A stretch of DNA of 64,000 nt, taken from the NCBI RefSeq assembly GCF_964213995.1, contig NC_135816.1, positions 61,442,001 to 61,506,000 of the forward strand. Direction: 5' to 3'. Of the stretch, positions 9,839 through 58,057 are shown one piece after another. This DNA is from Mustelus asterias. Taxonomy: Eukaryota. The notes beneath the pieces were generated by a model that saw only the letters and a list, made by a program, of their open reading frames with translations, was not told where the DNA came from and did no database searches. The translations under genes and the position numbers were made by a program. Numbering within the stretch: the stretch's first letter is position 1; each line of letters begins with the position of its first letter.

Positions 9839-10142
9839 ATCATGTTCCTCTGCATCACAAAGTTTCCACATATTCCACATATTCCACACAGTCCAAAGAT
9901 GTGCGGGTTAGGTTGATTGGCCAGGTTAAAAATTGCCCCTTAGAGTCCTGAGATGCGTAGGTTAGTGGGATTAGCGGGTAAATATGTGGGGGTAGGGCCT
10001 GGGTGGGATTGTGGTCGGTGCAGACTCGATGGGCCGAATGGCCTTCTTCTGCACTGTAGGGTTTCTATGATGATATTCAGATCCCCTAAAGAAATATTCA
10101 TCTCCATCTCTGTGTTTGGTACCATTTGATTGCCAGCAGCAA
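9839..10142 (-). pseudogene. Candidate exon of TIM-like gene A after the IgV exon, interrupted by a SINE 3' fragment (~9885-10072)
   Basis: Acceptor ttttctcag, phase 1, reads VAAGNQMVPNTEMEMNISLGDLN; the uninterrupted paralog is 38500-38600. Confidence 0.4.
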
Positions 10143-11357
10143 CTGAGAAAAATGAAGCATAACTACAGGCAGAGAGAAAAACTGGATAATATAAAATGGA
10201 GGACAACCCAACAGAACCAGTTAAAGTACAGAGCAACATCCAACAGGAAGGAAATGAAACCAAAATATCTGTTAGCTTTCTGAGCAAGGCTAGCCCTGCG
10301 CCTTTGTTTTATGGTGAAGTATGGGACTACTTCAGAGCTTCACATGAAACAATGAATGAAATCATTTAGTTGTACAGTAAACAGACAGCACAGCACAGAG
10401 AATACCGGTTACCAACCATCGGAAAATATTCATTACAATAAATACTATAGCATAATATTCATGTACTGCATATTTTTAGCTATATAAATATTTAAATCCC
10501 ATTCTACATTCAGCGGGGGTGCAGAGTATACCCAGGGATACAGTCACTAATGTCTAGCTGTGAAATATCTCTCCTGCCCATGTTCTATCACTGTCACCAA
10601 TATACACAGCGCTTCTCTATGGAAAAGTAGCAGATCCGTTGGGCCCGATTTTGCCATTTTCATTCTAAGTGCTGAATCTGGGCGCAACTCAGATCCGACT
10701 TGGAAATCTGTTTTCAGGCGCCCCCGTACACACTTAGCCTGAAAAAAAAATTGCAGGTCTGAATCGCACTGTGAGCAGGGCTTATCGTGCCCAAAACGAT
10801 CGGAGCTCTGAACTGCGCATACACAGTTAGAAAAAAGAAATTGAAAATCGTGCTGTCACATCACTCCCGGGCCGCAAAAAAAGCAGATAAAGCGGCCCGG
10901 GAGCGATGGTCCCCACAGACATCACCCCATCCCTACAACATAACTTTCCCCCTTATCCACCCACTCCCCCCCTCCACTACCCAGACCGATCGCGACCCTC
11001 TGTCCCCTTTTCCCCCCGCATTGCCCGCAGAGTGGCAACGGACTCCCCAGCCTCTGCCCCCACCACCCCCCGCACCTGTGATCCATCTGGCCTCCCGCCC
11101 ACCCCACAGAGATCCATCTGGCCTCCCTCCCAGTATATTTCGCATACTCACAGCCGAGCACTTAGACAGTTTCACTAATTAAGTGCATTTGCACTATTAT
11201 AGCTGTGGAATCCCTTCTCTCTGCTGCCTGTACTTGCAAAATCTACCGAGGTACATATCCAGGCCTTTATTGAAGTTGTGTAATGAAACATATAGGTGCG
11301 TGTACAAATAACTGTTGCTTGATTCAACAACCTTTGCAATTGTGTTTAGCAACAGCC

Positions 11358-13515
11358 AAGAACAAAGAACAAAGAACAAAGAAAATTACAGCACAGGAAC
11401 AGGCCCTTCGACCCTCCAAGCCTGCACCGACCATGCTCCCCGACTTAATTAAAACCCCCCTACCCTTCCGGGGACCATATCCCTCTATTCCCATCCTATT
11501 CCTGTACTTGTCAAGACGCCCCTTAATAGTCACTACCGTATCCGCTTCCACTACCTCCCCCAGCAACAAGTTCCAGGCACCCACTACTCTCTGTGTAAAG
11601 AATCTGCCTCGTGCATCTCCTTTAAACCTTACCCCTCGCACCTTAAACCTATGAACCCTAGTAATTGACTCTTCCACCCTGGGAAAAAGCTTCTGACTAT
11701 CCACTCTGTCCATGCCTCTCATAATCTTGTAGACTGCTATCAGGTCTCCCCTCAACCTCCGTCGCTCCAGTGAGAACAAACCAAGTTTCTCCAACCTCAC
11801 CTCATAGCTAATGCCCTCCATACCAGGCAACATCCTGGTAAATCTTTTCTGTACCCCCTCCAAAGCCTCCACATCCTTCTGGTAGTGTGGCGACCAGAAT
11901 TGAACACTATATTCTAAGTGCAGCCTAACTAAGGTTCTAAAAAGCTGCAACAATTTTTAAACTCAATACCCCGGCCGGTGAAGGCAAGCATGCTGTATGC
12001 CTTCTTGACTACCTTCTCCACCTGCATTGCCACTTTCAGTGACCTGTGTACCTGTACACCCAGATCCCTTTGCCTATCAATACTCTTAAGGGTTCTGCCA
12101 TTTACTGTATAATTCCTATCTGTATTAGACCTTCCAAAATACATTACCTCACATTTGTCTGGATTAAACTCCATCTGCCATCTCTCCGCCCAAGTCTCCA
12201 ACTGATCTATATCCTGCTGTATCCTCTGATGGTCCTCATCACTATCCACAAATCCACCAACCTTTGTGTCGTCCGCAAACTTACTAATCAATCCAGTTAC
12301 ATTTTCCTCCAAATCATTTATATATATTACAAACAGCAAAGGTCCTAGCACTGATCCCTGAGGAACACCACTTGTCACAGCCCTCCATTCAGAAATGCAC
12401 CCTTCCAGTGCTACCCTCTGTCTTCTTTGACCGAGCCAATTTTGTATCCACCTTGTTAGCTCACCTCTGATCCCATGCAACTTCACCTTCTGCACCAGTC
12501 TGCCATGAGGGACCTTGTCAACGACCTTACTGAAGCCCAAGTAGACAACATCTACTGCCCTACCCTCATCAATCATCTTCGTCATTGCCTTGAAAAACTC
12601 GATCAAGTTCGTGAGACACGACCTCCCCTTCATAAAACCATGTTGCCTCTCACCAATATGTCCACTTATTTCCAAGTGGGAATAAATCCTGTCTCGAAGA
12701 ATCCTCTCCAATAATTTCCCTACCACTGATGTAAGGCTCACCGGCCTGTAATTACTTGGATTATTCTTGCTACCCTTCTTAAACAAAGGAACTACATTGG
12801 CTATTCTCCAATCCTCTGGGACCTCCCCTATAGCCAGTGAGGATACAAAGATTTCTCTCAAGGCCTCAGCAATTTCCTCCCTTGCCTCTCTCAGTATTCT
12901 GGGGTATATCCCATCAGGCCCTGGGGACTTGTCTACCTTAATGTTTCTCAAGAACCCCAATACCTCCTCCTTTTTGATCTCAACATGACTCAAACTATCT
13001 TCACATCCTCATCATCATCCACCAAGTCCTTCTCTTTGGTGAATTTTGATGCAAAGTACTCATTTAATATCTCGCCCATTTCCTCTGGCTCCAAGCATAG
13101 ATTCTGTCCCTTGTCCTTGAGTGGGCCAACCCTCTCCCTGGCTACCCTCTTGCTCTTTATATACGTATAAAAAGCCTTGGGATTTTCCTTAATTCTGCTG
13201 GCCAATGCTTTTTCATTACCCCTTTTAGCCCTTCTTACTCCTTGCTTAAGCTTCTTTCTACTTTCCTTGTATTCCACACTTGCTTCGTGTGTTCCCAGCC
13301 TCCGAGCTTTGACAAATGCTTCCTTTTTCTCTTTGACTCGGCTCAAACTATCTCTCGTTATCCAAGGTTCCCAAAACTTGCCATACTTATCCTTCATCCT
13401 TACAGGAATGTGCCGGTCCTGAATCCCTATCTACTTACACTTGAAAGCCTCCCACATGCCAGATGTTGATTTGCTCTCAAACATCTGCCCCCAATCTATA
13501 TTCTTCAGTTCCAAC
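11358..13515 (-). mobile_element. CR1 LINE, 5'-truncated, frameshifted
   Basis: RT ORF pieces 11324-13397; (aagaaca)n tail at ~11358-11385. Confidence 0.92.
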
Positions 13516-13703
13516 TTGCAGTAAATTCTAAGAGCTGCATTTCCAAGTTTAGAAGACAATTTGGGAAATGGTAATAAGATCATTTCTACTTCTTCTGAAC
13601 TTCTGGTGTCGGGGGAAAAGAACAACATTCATGGCAAGTGAAATATTATCTAAGTAGCATTTATAACAGGAATAATCAGAATTAGAAATGTGATGGGATA
13701 GAA

Positions 13704-14290
13704 TTAACCCCACCCCCCCCCCCCCCCCCTCAGAGAATGATCAGGCCTCCCCCACCTCCCACCCCCCAGAGAATGATCAGGCTTTCCCCACCCCTCCCCC
13801 CAGAGAATGATCGGGCCCGCCTCCCCCACCCCCACCAGACAACAATCTGCCCTCCTCCCCTCCCACCTCCCCCTCCCCCCCCTCCACCAGACAACGATCA
13901 GGCCTTCCTCCTTCCTCACCCCCATCCACCGGAGATACATCTGACCTGCCTCACCCCCCCCCCCCCCCCCCCCACCCATCAGAAAATGATCGGGCCTTCC
14001 TTCTCCCCCACACACCACCCCACCCCCCCTCACCAGACACCGATCTGGCCAAGCCCCCCCCCCCCACCCCCCTCCCACCAGAGAATGATCTGGCCTTCCT
14101 CCCTCCGCCCACCCCTCCTCAACCAGACAATGATCGGGCCTCTCTCTTCCCTCCCTCCCACCAGAGATACATCTGACCCACCTCCTCCTCCCTCCCCCCT
14201 ACCAGAAAATGATTGGGCCTCCCTTCTCCCTCCCCCCCGACCAGAGAATGATCTGACCCGCCTCCCCCTACTCCCCCCACCCCACCACCA
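13704..14290. repeat. Degenerate ~35-40 bp C-rich minisatellite (ccagagaatgatcgggcc + polyC)
   Basis: More than a dozen repeats of the core, separated by C runs. Confidence 0.8.
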
Positions 14291-14851
14291 ATCTGAGTCA
14301 GAGAGCCGTTGGAAGCTCTGAACTTACCTCTTCAGCAACTGGAGCGCCCGAAACAGACCTTTGCCGAGCAGTTCTGTTTCGTGCCGAATCTGGACGCGCG
14401 AACACGATGGTAAAGCGGGAAATGCTGATAAAGTTGGGCGGGCAGTTCATTAATTCAATTTAAATGCATGCAAATGCATTTAAATCGCCGTTGCGCCGTT
14501 TCGGGCACGAATCAGATTGTGGCCATTTTCAGGCCTCGGTATAGTGGGCATCTGTGCGGACACGGGCACGCATCGCGTTAATGGCCTCACGCCCGACTTT
14601 ACCACATTTTCGCGCCCGAAAATGGGCGCAACGCAATGGTAAAATTGGGCCCATTGTCTGTGTATATTAAAGTTACCGCCTCACCTTCCGCATCGTCGCG
14701 GGCGGGGGCGCAATTTAACCGAGTGGATGGAAGCGGGAGTGGGACATCCCGGCTTCATCCCTCGATATTCAACATAGACATCAACAATAACTCTCGAATC
14801 AGTATTGAAATGGGAGAAATATAAGTAATGGATAATATTGAACTGACTTAC

Positions 14852-15199
14852 CCTCCAAAACCAGCAGATTGAAATTCACTTTCTGAGCATTAAAAAGACC
14901 AGAAATCCTTACACAGCAGCAATACCAGCCACTGTCTCCTTCACCGAGATTATCCACAGTGAGAGATACATCCCCTTCCTCTATTTTACCATCAAGGTGG
15001 TATTTTGTGGAGATTGTGTCAGTTACAGTTTTCCCATTTGTTTTAATCAGTGTTTGTGAACAGTCGAATGTAGAGCACCTTCCCCTGCCCCAGCACATTG
15101 CAGTTTCACCATTCTGAGTGACAGAGTATGTGCAGGGCAGCGTGACTGACTGTCCCAGGAATCCTCGCACTTCAGATCCTCTTACAGAGGGGACTGGAC
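14852..15199 (-). CDS. IgV-domain exon of TIM-family (HAVCR1/TIMD4-like) gene A
   Basis: GQSVTLPCTYS..MCWGRGRCSTFDCSQTLIKTNG..KYHLDGKIEEGDVSLTV..DSGWYCC..GLFN; tttcag acceptor, gtaagt donor, 348 nt, phase 1-1. Confidence 0.92.
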
Positions 15200-15678
15200 C
15201 TGAAACAATCCAGATAAAGACAGTAATAATTCAGTGTCCATTGCAGTGACAGAGAAAGTGTGCAGTGAATGAACAGACAGCACAGCACAGAGAATACCAG
15301 TTACCAACCAGCTGCTGTGACGGGAACATAGTGACTCATAAATAAGAACCGGAGTCAGGTATTCAGTAACCGAGCCTCTTCCACCACTCAGTTAGATCGA
15401 AGTTGATCTGTGCTACAATTCACTTTATTCCGTTTAGCTCCATATCCTTCCACATTCCTACCTAATGTTACAGACAAGGGAAAGATGGTTCTCCTTTCTT
15501 CCCATCTGTCAACTAACAGCAACATGATGTGTTTTCAGAGATGTGTGTTAACACTTGAGTGCTGAAACTTCCAAGAACAGACGCAAGTCAAGCTTTCTCA
15601 TGACGAAAATACATATTTAATTCCCAGCACCACCTTTTCCAGTCCAAGTTGTGGTTGAACCCTTGCAGTGAATATATA

Positions 15679-16648
15679 GGCTGGGATTCTCCCAAAAGAA
15701 TTCTCAGTCTCCAGTTCGCGTGAAAGCGGGAATAACTCCTGCCTATTTCTTTAGCGGGGATTTCAGATTGAATCTCCGACACTTTGAGCACTGCAGAGTG
15801 CCCGAGCGAGATTCACACTGAAAATCTGCAGGTGGGGCAATTCCCACTGGAGAGGCCGGCATCATAGCGCTAAGTGGGCCACTGCACATGCGCCGATCTG
15901 ACAGCGCCGAGATTGACTCATGCGCAGTGCCCTTCCGATCGCTGGCCAACCTGATCGCTGTCCAGCCCAGCAACCCCCACCCCCAATCGCTGGCTTCCCG
16001 GATCTCCCCAAGCAACCATTGTTTCCCCACTGTGTGGCCAACCCCAATCTCCCTGAACGCCCCCCCCCCCCCCCACAACCTGGATGGACAACCACAATTG
16101 GCGTCCTCCGTCCCTCTGCTACAATCCCAAATACAGAGTGGCAATGGTTCTCCCCACCCCCACTAATCGTCCCTCCCAATAGGCCCGGCCTTGCCCGGTG
16201 GGAAATGCCAAGGTGCCCCTTGGGGCATTGCCAGTTTTCCCCTTGGGCCAGTATGGCACTGCCAGGCTGGCACTGCCCAGGGGGCAGCCCCCACCTTGGG
16301 GGGCCTCAGTGGCCTCTCTTCACTCCAGTGGGGTCGGCCACCTGTTCCCCGCTAGTAGGGAGCAGTTGTAAACCCTGCTGGAGTGAAGTACGCCTGGCAG
16401 GGGGAGAGACACTAACGGGCCCAGGGACTTCAGTCCTGGGTCTACAAAAGACATTGAAATGTGAATTAGCATATTATAATCAGCTCCGCGCCGATTTCCA
16501 GCCAGGAGCTGATTACTCTAAAAACCTATACTATAGAGATACGTGGAGACCATGACGCCCAACAGGAAGCCCGTATAACGGCCTCTTCTAATGTCTCCCG
16601 GCCCGTTGTGCTACTAGAGCAGCACAGCAGGCTACAAGAATCGCCCCC
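15679..16648. mobile_element. Harbinger-like non-autonomous TIR element (family 2)
   Basis: ggctgggattctc ... gaatcgccccc ends, ATA on both flanks. Confidence 0.7.
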
Positions 16649-17547
16649 ATAATCTGCAAGTAAAAGAATTGATCCATTTCTCTGCCTTTGCTGAATTTCG
16701 AGGCAGGATTCATCCTTTCTCTGAGTGTGCTTCTATGGCCTCCGTAATGAAACTGCCTGCCTTTTACTCTTTGGACTAATAAGATGCTTCATATAACAAG
16801 CCAATGAGGAATGTTTGACATCCCTGTCATTACTCCAGTAATGAATAGTCTCCAAAACCTTTATTTGCTTTTCCATCTCCATGAGACCTGCAAATATATC
16901 AATTATTTTTACTCTCTACTTGAAATGGCAAGAAGCAGGTAGTACTTGGGAAGGTGGTTTGCATTTTAAGTGACTACCCAGAGATATGCTCAGACATGAA
17001 TGAATCCCTGACCCTGTACACAAAACACAAAAGAAGGTCACCGTGCTAAATTCTCTATGGTCAAGGTGTTTTTTCAAAATACAAGCCTATCTGAAGATCA
17101 TGGACATATTACACAGGTGCCACATGAATAAAAAATAATCAATTTTAATGGTGAAAGTTTCAATTGATACACGATCCAGAACCTTTGGGAGAGACTTTCT
17201 TATTTCTACTGTCATCTGCGTGATGTAGTTTTTCCTAATTCACTCTTAAATGGGCCAGCTGTAATATAAGATTATGTGTCCAGGTAAACGGTTTCGCTGT
17301 ACCTGCCCTTTCAAATCACTTTCTCAGTTTAAAGATCTTGATTAATTCCTCCTTGAACCTTCTAAATGCGAGTGAATACAAACATTATTTATGCAGCAAG
17401 CCCTTACACTTTAACACTTCAGGCAACACATTAGGTGAATCTGCACTGATCCTGTTGAAGGCCAGCTGGTCACTCACACACAGAACACTTTATATATGAA
17501 CATCATACATCTGTAGGAAAATTCACTTTTTAAATTCTGAAACTTAC

Positions 17548-17945
17548 CTAAAATCATAGAAACCCTACAGTACAGAAAGAGGCCATTTGGCCCATCGAGT
17601 CTGCACCGACCACAATCCCACCCAGGCCCTACCCCCATATCCTGACATATTTACCCACTAATCCCTCTAACCTACGCATCTCAGGACGCTAAGGGCAATT
17701 TTTAGCATGGCCAATCAACCTAACCCACACATCTTTGGACTGTGGGAGGAAACTGGAGCACCCGGAGGAAACCCACGCAGACACAAGGAGAATGTGCAAA
17801 CTCCACACAGACAGTGACCCAAGCCGGGAATCGAACCCAGGTCCCTGGAGCTGTGAAGCAGCAGTGCTAACCACTGTGCTACCGTGCGGCCCATCAAAAG
17901 AACAAGTAGTGCGGTCAAATGAACAATCATCCTGGTAATAAACAT
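17548..17945 (-). pseudogene. Signal-peptide exon 1 of TIM-like gene A, disrupted by a SINE
   Basis: MFITRMIVHLTALLVLL then SINE; the original donor G|gtaagt is displaced to 17548; intact paralog at 42809-42860. Confidence 0.8.
17554..17892 (-). mobile_element. Full-length HE1/V-SINE-like element
   Basis: GGGCCGCACGGTAGCACAGTGG head, B box, CR1-like tail ending tctatga; absent in paralog B. Confidence 0.9.
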
Positions 17946-18363
17946 AATGCTGGACAGCACAGAATGGAACTATCTGTGTTACAGCTGCTGTAGAATTTTG
18001 AGGCTGGAGTTGAATTTTTGTTTCTAAAGTTAGATCCGTACTGGCGTGAGTGGGTTAAACTTTCATGGGTGATGCTTCCTGTGAACAAGCTCTGTGAACT
18101 GAGGCATGTGTTTAGCAAGAATATATTGGGCTAAATTCTCCGACCTCACCGGCAGCTGCGAAGCACTGGCCCGACTGCAGGGAACGGAGATTTGGCTGAG
18201 TGCGAATTGTCTGTTCTCGCTGGCAGCGGCAGTGGGATGTGAATTGCCCGAGAATACCTCCCATTATCTCCAGTGATTTCCACCATTTTGCAACTGGAAC
18301 AAAATTAACCCATAATCCAAATTATTTTCGAGAGAAACATTAACACTCAAGTAAAATGTATAT

Positions 18364-19386
18364 GGGGGTCATTCTCCCATTCCGCTGCTCTGACTTTTTA
18401 GCGCAGTGGGCCTGGATTAGCCCGATCCGCGCTGGGCGTCCGACCCCGAGTATGCAGCTCCACACCGGAAGTAGTAATGTAATTTAAATGCAGTTAGTGG
18501 GCCTGCGACTGAATTATCCGGGCCCTCTATGATTACCCCCCACCCCAACCAGAGCAGGAATATTTCACTCCAGAGGGTTAACAATAGCTCCCCAATTTTT
18601 GGAAGCTGGCAACCCAGCCCTGTTGGAGTGAAGGAGGGGCAATTGGGACCTTCCAGTGGGTCAGGTGCCGGTGGGTGCCCCCTAGGCATTGGCACCTTGG
18701 CAGTGCCTGCCTCCTCCCCCCGGCACTGCCCAAGGGCAAAGTTCCAATGCCCAGGGGGACCTTGGCACTGTCCATCAGGCATGGGGCTATGCCAAGGGGG
18801 CAGGACTAATATGGGGGATCGGTGGGGAAGAGGGTGTCCTGCTGCCACTCTGCACTTTGGGATCGTGAGCAGAGGAAGGGAGGCCAGCGATCGAGGCTAG
18901 GCATTGGTGGGGGTTGTGGGTTGGGGGGGAGGGGATGGAGATCGGAGCTGCCAGGGGTGATCGAGGCTGCTGGGAGTAGGGGGGGGGGGGGTGGAGGGAG
19001 AGTGATCCAGCTGTGCTGGGGCCGTGGGCATGCTTGGGGGTGCGTGTGATCAGGCTGTGGGAGGGTAAGAGGGCCAGAGTTGCAGGTGGCAGGGCTGACC
19101 AGCAATCGAGCTGGCCATCAATCGGGAGGCCGGCAAACAGGGGCCACGATCTTGGCGCTGACAGATCGGTGCGTGCGCAGTGGCCCACTCACCTCTATAC
19201 TGCCGGCCTCACCAGCAGGAACTGGCCCTGCCTGCTGTTTTTTTAGTGCAATTCACGCTAGTCCACTCTGCAGTGCACAGAGGGTGGGAGATTCTTCTCT
19301 AAACTCCCAGTGAAAAAGAAACAGCGTGATTTACTCCAGGTTTCATGCAAATTCGACACTTCGAATTTTTTGGGAGAACCCCGGCC
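18364..19386. mobile_element. Harbinger-like non-autonomous TIR element (family 2)
   Basis: gggggtcattctccc ... gggagaacccc ends; absent at the paralogous site ~43275. Confidence 0.7.
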
Positions 19387-19749
19387 TTTGTCATTATTTC
19401 CACGCTGCAGGTTTAAGAGCAAAGAACTCCAAGGGGTCAGCTATGCTGAATTTGTGTTACCGAGCTGAAACTCGCATTGTCCAATGCTCTGCAATTCTGA
19501 CCCTATCGTATTTTGCATAGGTCTATTAATTACCATATCTATTGCAACTCTCATCCTAAATGGGAGTAATGTGATGGGTGCCTGAAAATTAGGCTGCAAT
19601 ATTTTGAAAATCAACTTTCTCTAAAGAATACAACAGCAGGTTGGGGGAACAGTAGATAAGTAAGCAAATGCTCAATTTGTGGCACTTGTGAAGAGTGCCT
19701 TCAAATTAGAAATGAAGAAGGAGCCGAGGCAAAAAAGAGAGACAGTGAG

Positions 19750-20640
19750 AGAACTTAAGAGCATTAGGACAAATGAAATAGGAGCAGAGTTTACCATTCA
19801 GCTTCTCGAGCTTACTCCACCATTCAATATGGCTGATCTTCTGCCTCAATTCCACTGTCCACGTCCATTGATTTACTGAGATATAAAAACTCCATTACAG
19901 CCTTGAATAAAATCAATGAGGGAGCACCCACAACCCTCTGAGGTAGAGAATTCCAATGATTCACAACCCGCTCAGTGAAGAAATTGCTCCTCATCTCTTG
20001 TCCTATATAATTGATCCTTTTTCCTGACCCCCGTGTTCTAGATTCCCCAACCAGTGAAAACAACTTCTCAGTGTCTGTCCGACCAAGCCCCTTCAGAATC
20101 CTGTATGTTTCACTTCGTTAAACTCCAAAGAGTACGGGGCCAGTTTACTCAATCTCTCAACACAGAACAAAACTTTCATTCGAAGAACCAATTTAATGAA
20201 CCTTCAGCGTAACACCTCAAAGTATATCCTTTCTTATATTTGGGACCAAACCTGCACAACTGTACTCAGGTGTCATGTATTCAAAGCACTGTTCAACTGT
20301 GCTTCATTCTTGTACTGGAACAAGCAGATGCCCCTACTGGTGCTTCACTGTGACAGAGCTGTCAGGGTGCCTTGTACAACTGCAGCAAAATTCCCTCATT
20401 CTGGTACTCCAACTCTCAATAAAGACCAACATGCGATTTGCCTTCCTAGTTGCTGTCTCTGCATGAAAAATGTTTGTGTTCCTTATGTGAGAACATCAAA
20501 GCCCCTCTGAACATGAACACTTATAAGTTTAATACCTTTAAACAAGTATTCTGCTTTTCTATTTTACTACCAAAGGGTATAATTTCACACCTTCCCACAT
20601 AATGCTCCATCTGCCATACCACCATTTGCTTAATCTGTCT
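19750..20640 (-). mobile_element. Old degenerate CR1 3' fragment
   Basis: FFTERVVNHWNSLPQRVV in the ORF track; paralog from ~43970 onward. Confidence 0.7.
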
Positions 20641-20929
20641 CTATCGAGAGTGACTAATTGTCCAGTTTTCAGCTGGACACTCCATGGTCCGGTACCAAAT
20701 GCCTTTATGGCGGCATTTTTACTTTGGGGTGCAAACAGTCACTGCAAGATCATCCTCACATTGACAGCTCTGCCACAGTGACTCACCAGTAGGGGCATCA
20801 GCTTATTCCTTTTCTCATTGTTACTTTCAGTCAGTATTTAGTTGAGGGCCACACACAAGCTTGGCCTCTGCTCAAGCACTCTCCCTTGCATGTATGCTTG
20901 AATAAACTAGCTTGACTTTACTCTTCCCG

Positions 20930-21040
20930 GACTCTGAACAAAAAGAAGCCTTTGCAAAAATTAAGCAGGCTCTGCAGTCGTCGATCTTCCGGATGCACTT
21001 CACCACAATCAAACCCTTGGCAGTAACCTGCGATGTTCTA
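20930..21040 (+). mobile_element. Gypsy-like RT/RNase H linker fragment
   Basis: SEQKEAFAKIKQALQSS..HF..KPLAVTCD. Confidence 0.45.
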
Positions 21041-21103
21041 GTGGAGTGCAAGGGTCTACTAAGGCAATAACTACCCAGAACAGGGTCATCAATATGGATG
21101 ATA

Positions 21104-21193
21104 CAGTAAGAAGTCTCACAACACCAGGTTAAAGTCCAACAGGTTTATTTGGTGGCACGAGCTTTCAGAGCGCTGCCCCTTCATCAGGTGATA
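21104..21193 (-). mobile_element. Short PLE terminal fragment with hammerhead motif
   Basis: pLTR sequence flanked by atatggatgat duplication; absent at paralog ~47515. Confidence 0.85.
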
Positions 21194-21429
21194 GATATGG
21201 ATGATGACTGATTGAGAGGCTCATGATTGGAACATTATAAACCACAAAACAAAAGGCAGGACCAGACACCAAATAAACATTCCTTAGTAAAATGTTGTGG
21301 AGGAAAGGGGGTCATGCAAACCTTATGAAATCACTATATCCAGTTGTGAACTCAAAAGCAGGCCAGTCAGCTGATTTATCACCAGCCTGCAAATCTCCAA
21401 CAGCAGAACCACAGGCTGACCAAGCAGGC

Positions 21430-21755
21430 ATAGAATCATAGAATCCCTACAATGTAGAAGGAAGCCATTCAAACCATCGAGCTTGCACCGACAACAATCC
21501 CACCTAGGTCCTATCCCCGTAACCCCATGTAATTACCCTGCTAGTCCCCATAACATTAAGGGACAATTTTAACATTGCCAATCAAACTAACCTGCACATC
21601 TTTGGACTATGGGAGGAAACTGGAGCACCCGGAGGAAATCCACGCAGACATGGGGAGAATGTGCAAACTCCACACAGTCACCTGAGGCCAGAATTGAACT
21701 TGGGTCCCTGGTGCTGTGAGACAGCAGTGTTATCCACTGTGCCACCGTGCTGCCC
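21430..21755 (-). mobile_element. HE1/V-SINE-like element
   Basis: Family core and tail; absent in paralog. Confidence 0.85.
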
Positions 21756-24237
21756 AACAAGAAACCTTCTGAAAGCCTACTTTACTATAGCCACTGACCA
21801 CCATCTGCCAAGCAGAACAAATTTCTATCCAAATCTTCTCACTGCAGTGCCATCACCTTCAAATAATTCTGCACTTCTGCCTTTATCCTGAAACCCACCT
21901 GAATTGGAACTTCATTACTTCCTGTAATCTGGAAATGAACTGATATCTATTTATGTGAAAGTTACTTTAAAAGTCACTACACAAACCAAGGTTTATTGGA
22001 ATAAGTATCACAACCTACTTTAAAACAAAAAAAATGCCTCTGCTTGTAGATAGATGGCGAGAGAGCGCAAAGGAGTTCAGTTTTGCCTCTCTCTCCTGTC
22101 CGCAAAGCATGGTTACAATTTGGTGTGCCTTTGTCCCACGTTAAACAGGAAGATGTATTTTATGCGTTCAAACTCCGAGCTAACTTGTCACAAATTAGCA
22201 TCCACCGAAGAGGCTGAACCCTTGAAAATGTGCCTAGCTGAAGAGGCGCAAGCAAATTACAGGATTCTGAATGACTTGGCCAATTTTCACATGCAGATCG
22301 AATGTCTGGTAGCGTTGCGAGGCATCAAGGTCAACCCAGACATACATATCAGTAAACCCAACAATGGAACTGGGAGGGTTATCCTTAACAAGTGTTAAAG
22401 TATTAATAAAATGCACAAAATGCTTAATGATGGGTCCAAATTCACATCCATTGGAACTGTCGCTCAGCATGACAAGACAGCCTTGCTCAAAGATTAGCTG
22501 AAAAAACATTTGTCTGGCCTGTTGAACAGCAATGAGTTGATGGATGATGGAATTTATCGTCACAGCTCACTACATTGTTTATGTATGGGCTTCCCAAGAC
22601 AAATAAAAGTGATGTCCCATTCTGCTCTATCTTATCTATGCACATAATGTGAATTGGCCAAATGGTTGGGCGAATTGCTACAATTTGTTTTGAACAAGTT
22701 TTCCAGATAAACAGTGAAGGATTCCTTCACATTTGCAAAGACGATACGGGAGTTCCATATCAATAGCAATGCTGTGTTCATGTGCTCATTTCACATTGCT
22801 GGCCTCTTCACCGATGCAGCGACATTATCCGAATCAATATTCACTGAACTTCTGAACTCAATAACTGGCGCAGTTCAGGTCAGTTTTAATGACACCATGT
22901 ATGTCCCAATATATGGTGTTGCCATGAAATCCCCTCGAGGCATGATGTGGAGATGCTGGCGTTGGACTGGGGTGGGCACAGTAAGAAGTCTCACATCACC
23001 AGGTTAAAATCCAACAGGTTTATTTGGCAGCCTGAAGAAGGAGCGAGATCCCCTCTAGGCCCAGCTCTCACAAACATTTTTTTTTGGGTTCCACGAGAAA
23101 CGCATCACTTCCTATCCCTTGCATATTCCTGATATGTCAATGATCTCATTGCTATATTTAAATCTGTAACTGCATGTAAGAATTTCCTTACACATCTTAA
23201 TAGGCTCATCCTGTGCTCAAATTCACCTTTGAAATAGAGCAGTTAAATGAGCTCCCTTTCTTGGACGTGCTTGTTGAGAAATCTGTTAATGGGTTCTCTA
23301 CCACCGTCTGCAACAAGCCCACCTATACTGGTCACTCTATGCATTGGGATTCATACAGTTCCCGACGCAATAAGATTGGCCTTATCAGCAATCTCATATA
23401 TAGGGCTCCAAGTCATTTTCTCACCCTGCAAGCCTGATGCTAAAATAGGGTGCGTCAAAGTCATTCTGCGAGATAGCAGTTACGCTGATTAGATCATTGC
23501 TCTCTGTATATCATATAAACTCATAATCGGTCTAATGCTGTCACTTTCAGTCCTGAAAAATATCCAGTCTACCTTAGATTATCTTGGAAGGGAAGGTTTC
23601 TCAAAGATTTGAGCAACAGGTGAGGCTAGCAACTTCACACTGCTACTATGCAGTAGCAACACAAGTGGTATTCATCACTAATAGAATATTGCTGTCAAGC
23701 CAAAGATTCTGCCTATCACACATGTAAGTAATGTGGTATATGAATTTCAGAGTCAGTGTGAAGCTAGGCATGCAGACCATACATCCCAATGACTGACGGG
23801 CAGATTGTATCAAACAGCATTGGCTGTTTGCAATGGACGAAGTACTGACTATGCCCAACCAGCTTGCAAAACTCAAAACATACTGTCCAACATTAGATGT
23901 GATTCTGTGATAGTACAACATTTGTTAAACAATCTAGATTGTGCTAAGAATTACACTGACAACCAATTTAAGATTGTTGATGGGGCTAGCGGTATGGCTC
24001 ACTTACGTGTGCTCGATGCTACATATATTAATACACAGGACGCAGTCCTTGGCAGACAGGAAGAACATGTACACACATTGTGCCTAAATCAGATCGGCCA
24101 CAGCCATTTCCTTCTCAATTCCCTGGGCAATGCCTTGACCAATCAGAATAAACCAGCTTGGTTTAAATGTAAACAAAACTTGGCATTTAATTGTCAGTTA
24201 TCAATTGGCTAGTGCATCCTCTATGGCAATGCATTGA

Positions 24238-24397
24238 CAGTAAGAAGTTTAACAACACCAGGTTAAAGTCCAACAGGTTTATTTGGTAGCAAAAGCCACT
24301 TGGCTTTTGCTACCAAATAAACCTGTTGGACTTTAACCTGGTGTTGTTAAACTTCTTACTGTGTTTACCCCAGTCCAACGCCGGCATCTCCACATCA
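24238..24397. mobile_element. Palindromic mini-PLE (two pLTR ends head-to-head)
   Basis: Perfect ~60 bp arms around ccac-t-tgg at 24300; atgcattgac duplication on the flanks. Confidence 0.9.
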
Positions 24398-24489
24398 TGC
24401 ATTGACCAGTCAGAGTCCACTTGCCAGCCAATTAGCACTCTCTCCTCATGCAGTATAAATTGTTGTCCCCTTCACAATTTAAGTTTTAA

Positions 24490-24785
24490 GTTATTTATTA
24501 TTGTCACAAGTAGGTTTACATTAACACCGCAATGAAGTTACTGTGAAATTCCCCAAGTCGCCACACTCCAGTGCCTGTTTGGGTACACTGAGGGAGAATT
24601 TAGCACGGCCAATGCACCTAACCAGCACGTCTTTTGGACTGTGGGGGGAAACCGGAGCACCTGGAGAAACCCACGCAGACACAAGGAGAACATGCAGACT
24701 CCGCAGAGACAGTGACCCAAGTCGGGAATCAAACCCGACTCCCTGGCGCTGTGAGGCAGCAATGCTAACCACTGTGCCACCGTGC
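24490..24785 (-). mobile_element. tRNA-derived SINE (V-SINE head, alternative tail)
   Basis: Same head as the HE1-like copies, tail gtaacttcattgcggtgttaatgtaaacctacttgtgac; second copy at 30471-30750. Confidence 0.8.
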
Positions 24786-26239
24786 AATTGTGTATTCTTG
24801 TGAATTTTCCTGATTAGCACAAGACAAAAAGTTTCGACAACATGTCTTTTTTCAGAAATACTGGTGTTTAGTTCTTTAATTAACCAATATACATTACAAT
24901 GTCACAACAAATTGGCTGAATTCTCCAGCTGTTCACACCCTACCGCCACTGCCAGAGAGGACAGAGAATTTGGCACTCAGCCAAATCTCTGTTCATTGCA
25001 GTGGGATGGGAGAATCCCTTTGGCATGTATGGCCGGAGAACCCCACCCATTATTTTTGAATGAACCGGTAGAAACTAAATACTTAGTTTTTAGATACTAG
25101 GACGGTGCATATTGCATTTAGCATTAAAGTTAACTTCTAATGTGGCTACACAATCTTTGGCCCAAGTTCCCAGATTTAAAATACACTGCCAGATGTAAAA
25201 TTAAACATCTCCCCTTTTCCCTTAAAAGCTTCAAAAGATCTTTCCCATGTCCATTCTAAATGCGCAGAGCAGTGTTTTTCAATGGCACTTCATGCTGCTG
25301 CTGCTGCGGGTTGTGGAATATTACAGCATATTTTCCTGGGCTTGATGTTGCTGTGGTTCAAACAGGTCAAGGATGGGTCTGGGTTGCAGGAAGGTCGCAG
25401 AACACGGAGGAAACGACATCACATAATTTGCTTGGTTTGTGTAGGAATAGTGTGCATGGTCTTACACGGAGAAAAGTCCCAATCCTTTCAGAACAAAATA
25501 AGTTTTCTGTCATGACAATATTTCATTTGCTGGATAGTTAGCTGAAAACCAGAAACAAGAGTATCAAACAACTCAATCACTGGTTGAACTTCACAACATG
25601 ATAGAGCTCAGAAAAACAGGATTTGGAAATACATTTATTTTTGTGTGAATTGACCAGACAGACGAGCAGGAAACACACTATATCGGAGCAGAAGTGGACC
25701 ACATGGATTCTCAAGTTTGCTCCACCATTTACTATGATCATGGTTCCATTTATCTGCCTCTTTCCCAAATCCCTTGATTCCCTTAATGACCAAAAATCTA
25801 GCTCAGCCTTCAATATGATACATGGAGCATTCACAACTCTCGAGAGTAGAGGATTCCAAAGATTCACAACCCTTTGAGTGAAGAAATGTTTCCTCATTCC
25901 AGTCCTAAACAATCAGCCCTTATCCTGAGGCTGTGCTCCCATCCCTCCCCGCCCCCTCCAGCCAATGGAAACAATTTCTCCATGTCTACCCCACCAATGC
26001 CCTTCAGAATCTTGTACTTGTCCAATGAGATCACCTCTCATTCTTTGAACTCCAGACAATATAGAGCCAGTTCACTCACCTTATCTTAGGACAACCCTCC
26101 CATCCCAGAGACTACTCTTGTGAATCTTTGCTGTACTGATTCCGTGTCTCTAGATCCTGCCTTATAAATGAAGGCCAAAATGGTTTCACCAAAACCATGT
26201 ACAATTGTAGTAGGACTTCTTTTATTCCTATACTCGAAA

Positions 26240-26770
26240 TTTATTTAACCTTTATTTAGCCAGATGAGTCAATTGAGAACCACTTCTTATTTACAACAAT
26301 GACCTGCCCAAGAGACTAATGCCGCCGCAGCATAAATTACACAACAATACAATTCATTAAAACACTAAAAACAATAAAATACCAATTAGCAATGAGAGTT
26401 AACAGCTTAACAAATGAAAGTACAGTTGACAGAGCCTTAGCCCTTCAGCGAAATTATCCATGGTCATAAAGTTAGATAGCTTCAGCTTTAGTTGTACCTT
26501 GTTCCAGTCATTGACAGCCTCAAACGGAAATGAATTACAACCAAAGCTTTTGCTCACTGTTAGAACAACCAATTTGATCTAGTCGCATGACCTCAGATTA
26601 TAAGGCAAGATAGTAAAATGTAACAAACTTTTCAAATAGGCAGGTGTTTTCCCAAACAAGGTTCGATAAACGAACAGAAGCTAATGGAGTTGGCGCCTTG
26701 TGTGCAATTAGGGCCAGTTAATCAGGGGGTACAGGTCACAGTGATGGCTGTGAAAAGGGACACCAAAAAC
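26240..26770 (-). mobile_element. L2-like LINE 3' fragment
   Basis: Reverse frame HHCDLYPLINWP..HTRRQLH..KTPAYLKSLL..FEAVNDWN; paralog at 50800-50860 plus 53778-54230. Confidence 0.7.
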
Positions 26771-27265
26771 AAATCAAATATTATGTGGTGTCATTTACAC
26801 TAGCTTAAAGCTCTTTGTATCTGGACATTTAGAGTGTATTTATTAAACAGCAAGTCTGTGTAAGTTTATCCTTTATAAACTATATATGGGCAAAGTGTAA
26901 GTATCCTCGACTATCCCACACAAAGAACAAACTTATTTTAAAAATACCTTTCACATTTCCACATGTCCCAAAGTGTCTCATGGTCAAAGAATAATAGTTG
27001 ACTCCTAAAAATGTGAAAAAAGCTTTTTTCTTGTCTTTTTTATGTTGGAGACAGTTCATTATATCTTGGGACTATCAGTTCCTGTGGCACTTGTGAGCTT
27101 TAGGAAGGGATTATTGAGCCTGGCAAGTGTCACGAACTCCAATATTCCAATGCATGTCATAGGGGCGCTTTCAATCAAAATTTGACACTGAACCACATAG
27201 GAGATATTAGAGCAGATGATCAAAAACTTGGTCAAAGATGTAGATTGAAAGTGGAAAGAGAGGTG

Positions 27266-28118: not shown

Positions 28119-28221
28119 ATTTCCATTGGCACAGGAACACGGTGATTATAATGTAGCAGATTAAAACAGGAAAAGCCAACAGAATTGTAGCAATCAGGCT
28201 GTGAGGGAACTCTTCTGGTAT
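28119..28221 (-). CDS. Transmembrane exon of TIM-like gene B
   Basis: cttcag acceptor, IPEEFPHSLIATILLAFPVLICYIIITVFLCQWK, gtgagg donor; paralog at 57949-58057. Confidence 0.7.
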
Positions 28222-30062: not shown

Positions 30063-30142
30063 AATTGAATGTGGAGTTTGAGTTGAATTTTTTTTATTTG
30101 GTGAGGAAGTCATCGAGTTAGCGGAAGAGAAAATCTTGTTCC
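30063..30142 (-). CDS. Ser/Thr-rich stalk exon of gene B (predicted)
   Basis: tctttcag acceptor, (G)NKIFSSANSMTSSPNKKNSTQTPHSI, gtgagc donor; phase 1-0 fits between the 32337 exon and the TM exon. Confidence 0.55.
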
Positions 30143-32323: not shown

Positions 32324-32336
32324 GTTGTATGCTTAC

Positions 32337-32393
32337 CATGTCCAGTAGTTTGGGTCACATCAGTGAACGGAGGAATCATTACTGTGGAATGAC
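32337..32393 (-). CDS. Mucin-like exon of gene B (predicted)
   Basis: tctgtcacag acceptor, (G)HSTVMIPPFTDVTQTTGH, G|gtaagc donor, phase 1-1. Confidence 0.65.
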
Positions 32394-36770: not shown

Positions 36771-36789
36771 ACTTGCGAGCTCATTGAAT

Positions 36790-39320: not shown

Positions 39321-39811
39321 CCTTCAAAACCAGCAAATTGAAATCCCCTTTCTGATCATTAAAAAGACCGACAAACTCTACCCGGCAGCAATACCAGCCA
39401 CTGTCTCCCTCGCCGAGATTATCCACAGTGAGAGATACATCCCCTTCCTCTATTTTACCATCAAGGTGGTATTTTGTGGAGATTGTATCCGTTACAGTTT
39501 TCCCATTCGTTTTAATCAGTGTTTGTGAACAGCCCAATGTAGGGCACCTTCCCCTGGCCCAGCACATTTCAGTTTCTCCATTCTGAGTGACAGACTCACC
39601 TGAAGAAGGGGCTCAGAGCCTCGAAAGCTTGTGTGGCTTTTGCTACCAAATAAACCTGTTGGACTTTAACCTGGTGTTGTTAAACTTCTTACTGTGTTTA
39701 CCCCAGTCCAACGCCGGCATCTCCACATCATGACAGAGTATGTGCAGGGCAGCGTGACTGACTGTCCCAGGAATCCTCGCACTTCAGATCCTCTTACAGA
39801 GGGGACTGGAC
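39321..39811 (-). pseudogene. IgV exon of TIM-family gene B, frameshifted by a PLE insertion
   Basis: Same splice sites as A; 491 nt = 348 + 143; retains WYCCRVEFVGLFND. Confidence 0.9.
39595..39730 (+). mobile_element. 136 bp PLE 3' terminus with hammerhead motif
   Basis: ctgaaga-aggggctcagagcctc-gaaagctt; tgacaga TSD at 39588-39594 and 39731-39737. Confidence 0.92.
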
Positions 39812-42808: not shown

Positions 42809-42860
42809 CTAAAAGAACAAGTAGTGCGGTCAAATGAACAACAATCCTGGTAATAAACAT
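42809..42860 (-). CDS. Signal-peptide exon 1 of TIM-like gene B
   Basis: ATG FITRIVVHLTALLVLL G|gtaaat; phase 1 joins the IgV exon in frame (GPVPSVRGSEVRG). Confidence 0.8.
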
Positions 42861-45219: not shown

Positions 45220-45290
45220 AAAGCCCTCTGAACATTTATAAGTTCAATACCTTTTAACAAGTATTCTGCTTTTCTACTTTACTACCAAAG

Positions 45291-46990: not shown

Positions 46991-47804
46991 AGTATAATTT
47001 CACATCTTCCCACATAATGCTCCATCTGCCATGCCACCATTTGCTTAATCTGTCTATATCGAGAGTGGACAATTGTCCAGTTTTCAGCTGGACACTCCAT
47101 GGTTCAGTACCAAATGCCTTTATGGTAGCATTTTTATTTTGGGTTACAAACAGTCACTGCAAGATCATCCTCACACTGGCAGCTCTGCCACAGTGACTCA
47201 CCAGTAGGGGCATCTGCTTCTTCCTTTTCTCATTGTTACTTTCAATCAGTATTTAGTTGAGGACCACACATAAGCTTGGCCTCTGCTCAAACACTCTCTC
47301 TTGCATGCATGCTTGAATAAACTAGCTTGACTCTACTCTCCCTTTACTTTGAACAAAAAGATGCCTTCGCAAAAATTAAGTAGGGTCTGCAGTCGTCGGC
47401 CTTGCGGATGCACTTCAATCCAACCAAACCCTTGGTAGTAACCTGCGATCCTTTCATGGAGTCTGAGGGTCTACCAAGGCAATAGCTACCCAAAACAGAG
47501 TCATCAATATGGATGATGACTATTTCAGAAACCCATGACTGGAAGATTATAAATCACAAAACAAAGGCAGAACCAGACACCAAATAAACATTCCTTATGA
47601 AATTGTTGAGGAGGAAGGGGGTCATGCAACCATTTTGAAATCTTTATCTCCAGTTGAGAATTCAGAAGTAGGCCAGTCAGCTGATTTATCGCCAACCTGC
47701 AAATCTCCAATAGCAGAATGCCAGATTGACCAAGCAGCCTACAAGGAGCCTCCTGAAAGCCTACTTTACTACAGCCACAGACCACCATCTGCCAAGCACA
47801 CCGA

Positions 47805-48784: not shown

Positions 48785-49018
48785 CAAGTTTCTATCAACA
48801 TCTTCTCACTGCGGTGCCATCATCTTAAAATAATGCTGCACTGCTGCCTTTAGCCTGGAACCCACCTGAACCCACCTGAACTGGAACTTCCCATGAGGGA
48901 ACCCCCTCTGGATTTTGAAGTCCTGCACTCCGTAAATCAAGAGAACTGATATCTACTTCAGTGATTCGTTTGGCAGTGAATTATTCATAGTTGTGAAACC
49001 CCCCTTTCCCCCTACTCT

Positions 49019-49058
49019 ATGTGTGTGTGTGTGTGTGTGTGTGCGTTTGTGTGTGTGT
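49019..49058. repeat. (TG)n microsatellite
   Basis: Directly visible. Confidence 0.9.
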
Positions 49059-50859
49059 AAAGCTGTTTTAATCCCCTGAGTTGGAAATGTATAAATAAAT
49101 TAACTTCTGATTTAATCCTAAATGTGAAAGTTACTTTAAAAGTCACTACACAAACCAAGGTTTATTGGAATAAGCATTACAGTCTACTTTAAAACAAAAA
49201 ACACCTCTGCTTATGGACAGATGGCGAGAGAGCACAAAGAAGTTCTGTTTTACCTTTCCTGTCCACAAAGCATGATTTCAATTTTGGTGTGTCTTTGTCC
49301 CACATCAAACTCCAGGGTGTATTTTGTGAGTTCAAACTCCTAGCATCCACTGAAGATGCTGAATCCTTGAAAATGCGCCTAGCTGATCTAGTGCATACAT
49401 ATTGCAGGATTCTGAATGACTTGGCCAATTTCCACATGCAAATCGAATGACTGGTAGCATTGCAAGGCATCGAGGACACCCCAGACGTACATATCTGTAA
49501 ACCCAACAATGGGACTGGAAAAATTACCCTTGACTCGTGTGATTATATAAAAAAAGTTTCAACAACGTGTCGTTTTTCAGAAAAAATAGGATTTAATTCT
49601 TAAATTAACTAATATATGTTAAAATTTCACAACCAGTTGGCTGGAATTCTCTGGTCGATCGTGCCCTGCTGCCGCTGCCACAGAGGATGGGGAATGTGGT
49701 GCTCAGCCAAGTTTCTGTTCACTGCAGCAGCATGGGAGAATCCCACTGACATGTGAATCCTGCCCATTATCTTTGAATGAATCAATAGAAACTAAAGACA
49801 TATGGGATAGCGCATTTTGCATTTACCATTGAAGTGAACTTCTGAAGTGGCTACACAATCGTTGGCTCAAGTTCCCAGATTTAAAATACACTGGGAGCTG
49901 TAAAGTTAAACATCTTCCATTAAAAGCTTGAAGAGATCTTTCCCATGTCCATTCTAAATGCGCAGAGCAGTGTTTTTCAATGGCACTTTATGCTGCTGCG
50001 GGTTGTGGAATATTACAGCATATTGTCCTCCGCTTGATAATGCTCTGGTTCAAACAGATCAAGGATGGGTCTGGGTTGCAGGAAGGTCGCAGAAGACTGA
50101 GGAAACAACATCACATAGTTTGCTTGGTTTTTGCAGGATTAGTGTGCATAGTCGTACACCGGAAAAAGTCCCAATCCTTTCAGAACAAAGTTAGTGTTTC
50201 TGTCATGACAATATTTCCTTTGCTGGATAGTTACCTAAAAACCAGAAACAAGAATATGAAACAACTCAATCACTGGTTGAACTGTACAATATGATAGAGC
50301 TTAGTAAAACAGGTTTTGGAAAGTACATTTATTTTTGTGTGAATTGAACATACAGAAGAGCAGGAAACACATTACATAGGAGCAGAAGTGGACCATATGG
50401 ATTCGCAAAAATCTAACTCAGCCTTAAATATGATACATAGAGCAATCACAACTCTCTGGAGTAGAGGATTCCAAAGATTCACAACCCCCTGAGTGAGGAA
50501 ATTGTTCCTTATCCCAGTCCTAAACAATCATTCTTTATCCTGAAGCTCTGCCCACCGTACTCCACCCCACCCCACAATCGACACACTACCACGTGTATTA
50601 GATTCTCCAACCAATAGAAACTATTTATCCATGTCTACTCTATCAAGCCCCTTCAGAATCTTGTACTTATCCAATCTCTCATTATTCTAACTCCAGTTCA
50701 TTCACCTTATCATAAGACAACCCTCCCATCCCAGAGACTAATCTTGTGAATTTTTGCTCTACTGATTCCGTGTCTGTATATCCTTCTCGTACTTGAATTT
50801 TATTTAAACTTCATTTCGCCAGATGAGTCAATTGAGAGCCATTTTCTCATTAATAACAA

Positions 50860-53777: not shown

Positions 53778-54789
53778 TTTACAACAATGACCTGTCCAAG
53801 ACACTAACGCCGCAGCAACATAAATTGCACAATGCAATTTATTAAAACACTAAAAACAATAAAATACAAATTAGCCATGAGAGTTAACACTTTAACGAAT
53901 AAATGTGCCAGTTGACAGAGCTTTAACCCTTCAACAAAATTGTCCATGGTAATAAAGTTAGATAGCTTCAGCTTTAGTTGTACCTTGTTCCAGTCATTGA
54001 CAGCCTCAAACTGAAATGAATTACAACCACTTTGTTGGAACAACCAATTTGATCAAGTCACATGACCTCAGATTAGAAGGCAAGTTAGTAAAATGTAACA
54101 AACTTTTCAGGTATTTTCCCTAGCAAGGTTTGATAAACGAACAGAAGCTAGTGGAGTTGGCACCTTGTGTGCAATTAGGGCCAGTTAATCAGGGAGTACA
54201 GGTCACAGTGATGAGCATGAAAAGGGAACCAACTATAAATTACAGAATCAAACAGGACCTCTAACTCATCAAGAGAGGTTTTGGAGGGCCATTTATTAAT
54301 TAGATCACCTTAATTAAAAATGAGCTGGACAGACATCTGAACTATGGTGCATCAAGTAGCATGAGTAAAACAGGATTTATTGTGATACTGAAAGCCAACT
54401 CTGGACATAATCTTAACTTGTAAAATATGGGAATTCAAAGTCAAAGCATGGTCCAGCCAGATTCAGAGATATTTGTAAGTGAAAACTTGCTTCAATTTGG
54501 TTTTAATCAAGTTCAAAGTCTGTTGTACATGAGCGTTAACAGTTTAACAAATAAAAGTGTCAATCGACAGAGCCTTAAAATAACCAATCCCCTATCCATG
54601 CTAATATATTACCCTGACTCCCCACTTTTGTTTTCTGTTATTCAGTTTTGTCCTCTATATTGTTGGAGTGTTGATCCTTTTCGTACTCGTCTTAGACAAT
54701 TTGACTTTCTGAATTAAGTTTGAAAGTGTTTTAGATGCATTTTGAATGCTGGGTGTTATACAGTTGTACGATTCTGCTAGCTGGCAAAG

Positions 54790-56720: not shown

Positions 56721-57534
56721 CATGGAATCAAAACATCAACTCTGTTTCTCTCTACACAGATGCTGCCAGACCTGCTGAGTTTCTCCAGCATTATCCGTTT
56801 TTATTTCAAATAATCCTATTTTATTTCCAAGATGACATTACCTACATGAAGAGTAAAAATACAGTAGATTGAGGAAACTATTTACCCAAATGATAGATCT
56901 CTGTTTAAGAGCCTGTATAATGTATAATGCAAAACGTTTCCACACGGGTGGTTTGAGTCTGGAATGCACTGCCTGGAAGTGTGGTGGAGACAGGTTCAAT
57001 TGAAGCATTCAAGACGGTGTTAGATGATGACTCGAATAGAAGAAGTGCGAAGGGGTACGGGGAAAAGACAGGAACTGCATTGAGCCATGATGCTCATTTG
57101 GCGAACTGGTATAGGCGCAATGGCCCAAACGGCTTCCTTTTGCACCGTAAGAATTTTGTAATTTACTAATTGGAAATTGGAATGTAATTGGACAAAGGGA
57201 ATGTAAATGGTGATGATAAAGGCTGACCGTCTATCAAGAGATCAGAATGTGTAAATGGCAGAACAAAGGTAGAGATTGCCAGGGGACAAACTGAGGTACA
57301 TGGCAGTTGGCTGGGGGGAGAGTTGGTGTTGGGAAGACAAGATTCAAAAGTTGTAAAATCAAAAAAAGAATATGAAGTAATGAAAATGGATGGATAAGAT
57401 GAAAAGAATAAATGAGTAATTACGGTTCCCCCTCCACCGCCATAGTATAAATCATGTCCTATTTTCTTTGTCTTTAGCTCTGATGAAAGGTCATCCAGAC
57501 TCGAAGCGTTGGTTCTATTCTCTCCCCACAGATG

Positions 57535-57752
57535 TTTTTTTTAATACTTTTCCAATTCAATCAAATCAAATCCAATTCAGAGTCTCAACAAGTTGAGACA
57601 TTTCAGATCCAGGCTGACAAGACAGGGCGAGTGACCAAACCACCCTGTCCTGGGCCTGATCTACATGAGCCAAGCTGATTGGAGAAGGGGGAGGTTCCTC
57701 CTCCAAGACTTGAGCTCATTTGCACCTTAGCCAAAAGGCCGAGATGCCGCTT
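57535..57752 (-). mobile_element. U2-snRNA-headed polyA retroposon (SINE-like)
   Basis: Reverse complement of 57726-57744 = TCTCGGCCTTTTGGCTAAG (U2 5' end); non-U2 structured body; A tail; splits a host repeat. Confidence 0.65.
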
Positions 57753-57948
57753 TGTTGTCAGACCTGCTGAGTTTTTCCAGCATTTTCTCTTCTTGTTTCC
57801 AAAGCAGGCTGTGCCAGTAACAGTTGACATGTCATATCTTACCTGCAGTTACCTGATGCAGTAAAGCATCTTGATTTCAGAGTCAAACCATCATACGTAA
57901 AAAAGTTGTTTTGAAGATTAAAGCTGATTATTAAATGGTGGCACTCAC

Positions 57949-58057
57949 ATTTCCATCGGCACAGGAGCACAGTGATTGCAATGAAGCAGATTAAAACTGA
58001 AACACGAAAAGCCAACAGAATTGGAGTCATCAGGCTGTGAGTGAGCTTTTCTGGTAT
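57949..58057 (-). CDS. Transmembrane exon of TIM-like gene C
   Basis: IPEKLTHSLMTPILLAFRVSVLICFIAITVLLCRWK, tatag acceptor, gtgagt donor. Confidence 0.7.

Follow-up and report, generated by a model that had tools for sequence, protein, structure and literature searches.

The stretch of DNA analysed here (the window) spans 64,000 nucleotides of Mustelus asterias (G000:C16:61,442,001-61,506,000, in a genome of 3.68 Gb) and holds part of a tandem cluster of genes related to the TIM receptors. We added 100 kb on each side and continued the window numbering there, to negative positions at one end and past 64,000 at the other. Six copies of the TIM-like IgV exon are spread across 155 kb, in the transcription order E, D, C, B, A and Z. 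Only the copies of C and Z sit in intact genes, the other four being parts of broken genes. Besides A and B, which lie in the window, three further copies were found outside it (C at 96.1 kb, D at 118.5 kb and Z at -35 kb in extended coordinates), together with a degenerate one (E, 119.1 kb); the IgV exon of D carries a 4-nt deletion. An earlier reading of this DNA, hereafter the original prediction, had described three minus-strand units shaped by birth-and-death evolution. Units A and B stand as described, but the third is the 3' end of the intact gene C, whose IgV exon lies 32 kb past the window. The presence of six IgV copies in 155 kb, only two of them in intact genes, supports the birth-and-death evolution. 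Judging from sequence, the cluster is probably a paired-receptor system, made of short-tailed genes that bear an Arg in the transmembrane (TM) segment (C) and of a tyrosine-tailed gene (Z).

The IgV exons are clearly related to those of TIM proteins. TIM chains are the top 15 of 26 PDB matches, with E-values from 7.6e-34 (TIM-1, the best) to 6.5e-21, whereas the best non-TIM chain, pIgR, only reaches 4.1e-7. Judged by these matches, the family assignment is not due to chance, and the exons do not fit a non-TIM family better, which would have contradicted the original prediction. The six IgV cysteines are present in A, B (with its insert left out), C and Z, and A has a seventh. The metal- and phosphatidylserine-binding site, of the WFND type (PMC9611583), reads LFND in B, C and Z and LFNA in A. 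Exons encoding a mucin stalk, a TM segment and a tail are present in B, C and Z, while A lacks such a set. The features of the window are listed in Table 1. Nothing exon-like was found at 9839, where the stretch of the original prediction starts.

Table 1. Features of the TIM-like genes within the window (window coordinates)
Feature	Position	Strand	Remarks
C transmembrane exon	57949..58057	-	Conserved Arg; intact short-tail type I TIM
C last coding exon	50203..50234	-	10-residue tail end and stop
B signal-peptide exon	42809..42860	-	52 nt, intact, phase 1
B TIM IgV exon	39321..39811	-	Interrupted; LFND kept
Insert in B IgV exon	39595..39730	.	136-nt terminal fragment of young, probably Penelope-like repeat; frameshift and stop
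B mucin exon 1	32337..32393	-	Phase 1-1
B mucin exon 2	30063..30142	-	Phase 1-0
B type I transmembrane exon	28119..28221	-	Two codons shorter than that of C, without Arg
B last coding exon	25510..25541	-	Between B and A
Duplicated block	8166..26774	.	Collinear with 35834-54240; mostly 81-97% identical
A signal exon, SINE-split	17548..17945	-	Coding parts at 17945-17896 and 17549-17548; native donor preserved
SINE in A signal exon	17554..17895	-	342 nt; 95.3% identical to nearest copies in region
A TIM IgV exon	14852..15199	-	Open; 348 nt, phase 1-1; LFNA not LFND, seventh Cys
A dead mucin exon	6928..6990	-	Type II (Z-like); AG acceptor lost, in-frame stop

Gene C has its signal, IgV and mucin exons outside the window (extended coordinates 96340-68105) and encodes a spliced protein of 211 residues, about 13 of which form the tail. 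A database protein from M. asterias (P0001) matches it exon by exon (88-100%). The model of P0001 (108668-50203) has no signal exon, two odd upstream exons and an extra 81-nt exon (62794-62714); with a signal exon at 96340-96298, C gives the clean 211-residue protein. Gene Z comprises seven exons and ends in EENVYNIE. Its tail tyrosine lies in ENVYNIE, and no canonical immunoreceptor tyrosine-based inhibitory motif (ITIM) is present according to the usual consensus. Two signal exons in a decayed state precede D at positions 119420-118740, along with a degenerate piece of an IgV exon, and an assembly gap (N) separates the TM exon of D from C at about 106273.

Two types of genes can be distinguished by their tails. 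Type I (B, C and D) has a short tail and, except in the broken B, an Arg inside the hydrophobic segment that is followed by 15 mostly apolar residues, a spacing which we take to resemble that of FcR-gamma-coupled receptors. Type II (Z) has a tyrosine tail. The Arg is invariant in all nine type I proteins aligned from sharks, skate and stingrays, which were picked by likeness of their TM region (9 out of 10 if B is counted), and is found in none of the eight type II proteins. Unlike the Arg, most of the type I stalk is not conserved from sharks to skate and stingrays. A homologue search with the TM region returned only three catshark proteins.

We compared the trees of the two parts of the proteins, using the same 18 rows from cartilaginous fishes. 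In the tree of the part that follows the IgV domain, the 10 type I rows are separated from the 8 type II rows with 100% support. In the IgV tree, which was obtained with a quick method and two mammal outgroups and leaves out A, D and E, the types are mixed and the rows are grouped by species, with 6 type changes against a shuffled mean of 6.2. For the IgV domains, the approximately unbiased (AU) test rejects a clade of the type II rows, with p-AU 8e-10, as well as a clade of the shark type I rows, with p-AU 6e-4. Within a species, the IgV domains of the two types are 91-100% identical in four shark genera (111/113 residues in Chiloscyllium punctatum, 103/113 in Scyliorhinus canicula, 106/115 between B and Z, and 65/65 in Heptranchias, for a partial alignment), whereas pairs of the same type from Chiloscyllium and Scyliorhinus share 73/113 residues (65%). 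At the nucleotide level, B and Z are 96.3% identical in the IgV exon, but the value is 73.5% in exon 1 and drops to 22-32% beyond 100 nt from the donor, where the two can no longer be aligned; high identity is thus limited to the IgV exon and its edges. The ratio of nonsynonymous to synonymous substitutions among the IgV exons (0.55-0.87) was obtained from few sites and was too noisy to be used.

Genes A and B are both damaged, in different ways. The open IgV exon and the signal exon split by a short interspersed element (SINE), both predicted for A, were found again. The SINE separates positions 17896 and 17549, two bases ahead of the donor, with a TTTT duplication, and translation through it meets a stop at codon 77. 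Cryptic donors within the SINE were considered as a rescue of A and rejected, as each of the 9 in-phase GT sites located ahead of the stop has a negative score, against 7.4 for the native donor, on a base-frequency matrix. The splice sites of the A IgV exon are intact. The mutation D115A in human TIM-1 reportedly abolishes flavivirus infection (PMC9611583). The LFNA of A is the same Asp to Ala change, and the Asp predicted to bind lipid and metal is therefore lost. No TM or tail exon of A was detected in the 49 kb between A and Z by protein and nucleotide searches, the same protein search recovering the TM exon of B with an E-value of 1e-13. Neither this lack nor the Asp change of A figured in the original prediction.

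Gene B retains all six exons, and all but the IgV exon are intact, as are the splice sites. This confirms the intact signal exon and the phase-compatible mucin and TM exons that had been placed downstream of it, to which the last coding exon can be added. The IgV exon had been described as frameshifted by a Penelope-like element. The insertion and the frameshift are both present: a 7-nt target duplication (TCTGTCA, at 39731-39737 and 39588-39594) flanks the insert, 143 nt are added in all, and the frame of the exon hits a stop at codon 66. The nearest copy of the insert, with 97.8% identity, is itself the end of a longer repeat. A member of this repeat family gives a weak GIY-YIG match under the Pfam cut-off; the Penelope-like identity is therefore likely on sequence grounds rather than firm. 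No match to the SINE of A or to the insert of B was found in Rfam. Splicing of the insert as an internal intron was discarded, since the better donors are in phase 0 and the pyrimidine-rich acceptor needs phase 1. Read on the gene strand, the insert (39595-39730) has an almost perfect splice donor at 39599. Its plus strand contains the core words CTGAAGA ... GAAA around a hairpin, which look hammerhead-like.

The origin of these two genes can be read from a large duplicated block (Table 1), which holds the last exon of the upstream gene, the spacer, exon 1, the IgV exon and part of intron 2. Below the shared block, B matches C (64-83%) and the 3' flank of A matches Z (66-75%). B would most simply derive from an unequal crossover within intron 2 of a C-type and a Z-type gene, joining a type II front, from the ancestor of A, to a copy of the back of C. 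A would be the Z-type donor, which may have lost its 3' exons later. Halves of genes would thus have been swapped in DNA and not in RNA. The SINE and the Penelope-like piece probably struck two redundant copies: neither A nor B contains the insertion of the other, and the lesions of A and B are therefore independent. Their complementarity is best read as a coincidence.

The grouping of tails by type and of IgV domains by species is a signature of paired receptors, as described for those of leukocytes (PMC3210942) and for CD300A and CD300C (PMC12447643). The genes are adjacent, their IgV domains are homogenised within species, and one member has a short tail and a charged TM segment. We therefore favour, as the probable interpretation, a paired-receptor system in which gene conversion likely keeps the binding domains of the C- and Z-type genes alike. 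For both types, LFND would be the site that binds phosphatidylserine, on dying cells or on enveloped viruses. The tail tyrosine of Z would allow it to signal by itself, in the manner of TIM-1 and TIM-3, and C would signal with an FcR-gamma-like adaptor, whose Asp would pair with the TM Arg of C. Receptors of the Arg type that associate with FcR-gamma include LILRA, FcalphaRI, GPVI and NKp46. An FcR-gamma-like TM exon (L082, C275:0.47 Mb, probably an unplaced contig) and a CD3-zeta-like one (L081, C17:72.92 Mb) are found in the genome. Several points weigh against this interpretation. The motif of the type II tail is not a canonical ITIM, and opposing signals of the pair are therefore putative. 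The proteins of other species are automated gene models, with longer tails in some of those of type I (P0012, P0081), and the identical IgV domains of Heptranchias could be one shared exon. Given how the type I rows were picked, the conservation of the Arg is not a blind count. Recurrent unequal crossover could yield the same trees as gene conversion. Moreover, the IgV domain of C is just 88% identical to that of Z and clusters with catshark type I copies (support of 81 in the Shimodaira-Hasegawa-like approximate likelihood ratio test, SH-aLRT); not all type I genes are therefore homogenised. Finally, mammalian TIM genes adjoin MED7 and ITK, and the shark cluster is on the same chromosome as MED7 (C16:13.63 Mb) and an ITK-like gene with a BTK motif (13.68 Mb) but 48 Mb away, and one-to-one orthology to mammalian TIM-1, TIM-3 or TIM-4 is therefore tentative. 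No TIM IgV exon was found in the 200 kb examined around MED7, and in a separate IgV tree, which has no TIM-3 row, the deep forks have support below 80.

The same locus could be a plain birth-and-death array, where A and B are pseudogenes, C serves for attachment only or as a decoy, and neither the Arg nor the likeness of the IgV domains has a meaning for paired signalling. This is the less likely account. In its favour, four of the six IgV copies are in broken genes, B lost its Arg, Z has no ITIM, and tandem genes generally convert and recombine whatever their function. It leaves unaccounted for why sharks, skate and stingrays all share the Arg when most of the stalk varies, and why a high identity restricted to the IgV exon and its edges is seen again and again, in four shark genera. 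The partial survival of B seems improbable. Its symmetric IgV exon could be skipped, giving a 107-residue mucin-TM protein, or an insertion-free allele could exist on other chromosomes. The other exons and splice sites of B are intact, the IgV-skipped frame is open, and the insert is young and supplies an in-phase acceptor at 39599. The skipped product would nevertheless have no binding domain, and the TM Arg is already gone from B. An empty-site joint 39587-39731 is expected from the paralogous IgV exons and thus gives no proof of a clean B allele.

The original prediction also proposed a long-range splice (42809->15199) from exon 1 of B to the IgV exon of A, which would bypass both lesions. 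One part of this proposal is correct: both sites are in phase 1, and once they are joined the frame stays open across the IgV exon, the splice sites of which are intact. The rebuilding of a membrane receptor is not supported, as no TM exon was found in the 49 kb below A. Transcription proceeds through B exon 1, B IgV, the two B mucin exons, B TM, B last exon, A exon 1 and A IgV. The mucin and TM exons cited in favour of the 27.6-kb splice lie between 42809 and 15199 and would be dropped by it. Five B exons would be skipped, including the last, in spite of the B IgV acceptor, which is the same as that of A over 45 nt and is 3.0 kb from B exon 1, i.e. 24.6 kb nearer. The product would be a signal peptide and an IgV domain with no metal-binding Asp, and without further splicing its frame ends 17 codons into intron 2. 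There is no usable mucin or TM exon in A, and the first mucin exon of Z is 67 kb beyond the A IgV exon. Among human read-through fusions (PMC3041646), half span less than 26 kb, and in 25% an early donor is spliced to the second exon of the next gene. Such distances and patterns make a trace B-A junction possible, but not a working receptor. It is accordingly very improbable that this transcript gives a useful protein, which would be at best a secreted IgV domain, or a receptor through longer splicing into Z, and rescue into a working membrane receptor is not supported, its chances being minimal. No RNA run of M. asterias was among those listed. Runs X2, X4 and X5 have reads within introns, as DNA would, and run X1 comes from another organism, covers mainly the IgV exon and repeats, and shows 7-13% differences in the IgV pieces. 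The 15 read joints listed on the B side do not include 42809, but 327 further joints are unlisted and the A region was outside the stretch aligned, giving no evidence either way. In addition, the A and B IgV exons are identical for their first 91 nt, with A-specific bases from window position 15108 downwards, and short junction reads therefore cannot separate them.

A broader proposal can be made, with clear reservation and at a little under even confidence. Sharks and rays may have an ancient branch of activating TIMs coupled to FcR-gamma, whose ligand would be kept the same as that of a tyrosine-tailed TIM by repeated IgV conversion and crossovers in intron 2. Three frogs, gar, conger and bonefish also have TIM-like proteins in which an Arg begins the TM segment or lies within it (P0087, P0100, P0114, P0136, P0184, P0186). 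These would suggest that such TIMs occur widely among vertebrates other than mammals and are missing from the latter. They are not joined to the shark type I in the separate IgV tree, and may therefore be independent. A literature search, which did not cover most subscription journals, found no paper on shark TIM genes or on TIMs with an Arg or another charge in the TM segment.

TIM-1, TIM-3 and TIM-4 act in the clearance of dying cells, the entry of enveloped viruses and immune checkpoints, and a standing question is how TIMs without a signalling motif of their own trigger engulfment. If the interpretation as paired receptors is true, the pair formed by a TM-Arg TIM and a tyrosine-tailed TIM would be an adaptor-coupled solution to this problem, and TIMs would be subject to the same counter-decoy dynamics as pairs of CD300, Siglec and LILR receptors. 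The shark genes share with the mammalian family (TIMD4, HAVCR1/TIM-1, HAVCR2/TIM-3 and mouse TIM-2) the six-Cys IgV domain, the WFND-type site, the mucin stalk, the single TM segment and the tandem cluster, and the EENVY of the Z tail resembles the EDNIY of a mouse TIM-1-like protein (P0017). They differ by their short stalks, and no mammalian TIM among the matches listed combines a TM Arg with a short tail. Among other receptors, CD300A and CD300C are similar in that they have a single IgV domain and phosphatidylserine as a ligand, that their outer domain undergoes gene conversion and that the partner with a charged TM segment was lost repeatedly (PMC12447643); CD300C has a TM Glu and CD300A has ITIMs, whereas the shark genes, built on a TIM scaffold, have an Arg in the TM segment of one type and a tyrosine tail without ITIM in the other. 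The "merohomogenization" pairs (KLRC, KLRI, KLRB and PIR; PMC3210942) are also adjacent genes with a binding domain homogenised within species, a signalling part conserved by type and a positive TM residue. In these pairs opposite signalling and adaptor binding are demonstrated, whereas for shark TIMs they are deduced. As for the proposed B-A splice, transcription-induced chimeras likewise involve same-strand tandem genes, an in-frame splice to the second exon of the next gene and a similar distance; their commonest pattern (PMC3041646), however, uses the last donor, whereas the proposal uses the first and the downstream gene A has no 3' half.

Other elements were observed in the window and in the genome. 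An open frame of 994 codons (2254-5235, plus strand), which by eye resembles the endonuclease/reverse transcriptase of a CR1-type long interspersed element, is nested in a Penelope-like element. Head-to-head inverted copies form a 126-nt palindrome of Penelope-like ends at 24237-24362 and a palindromic 40-nt tandem array at 34111-34494. Elsewhere in the genome (G000:C19:1,402,000-1,457,850; L063-L068), three TIM-like IgV exons are followed by GAIN, GPS and seven-transmembrane (7TM) exons matching P0152 and P0062, i.e. a TIM-headed adhesion G-protein-coupled receptor.

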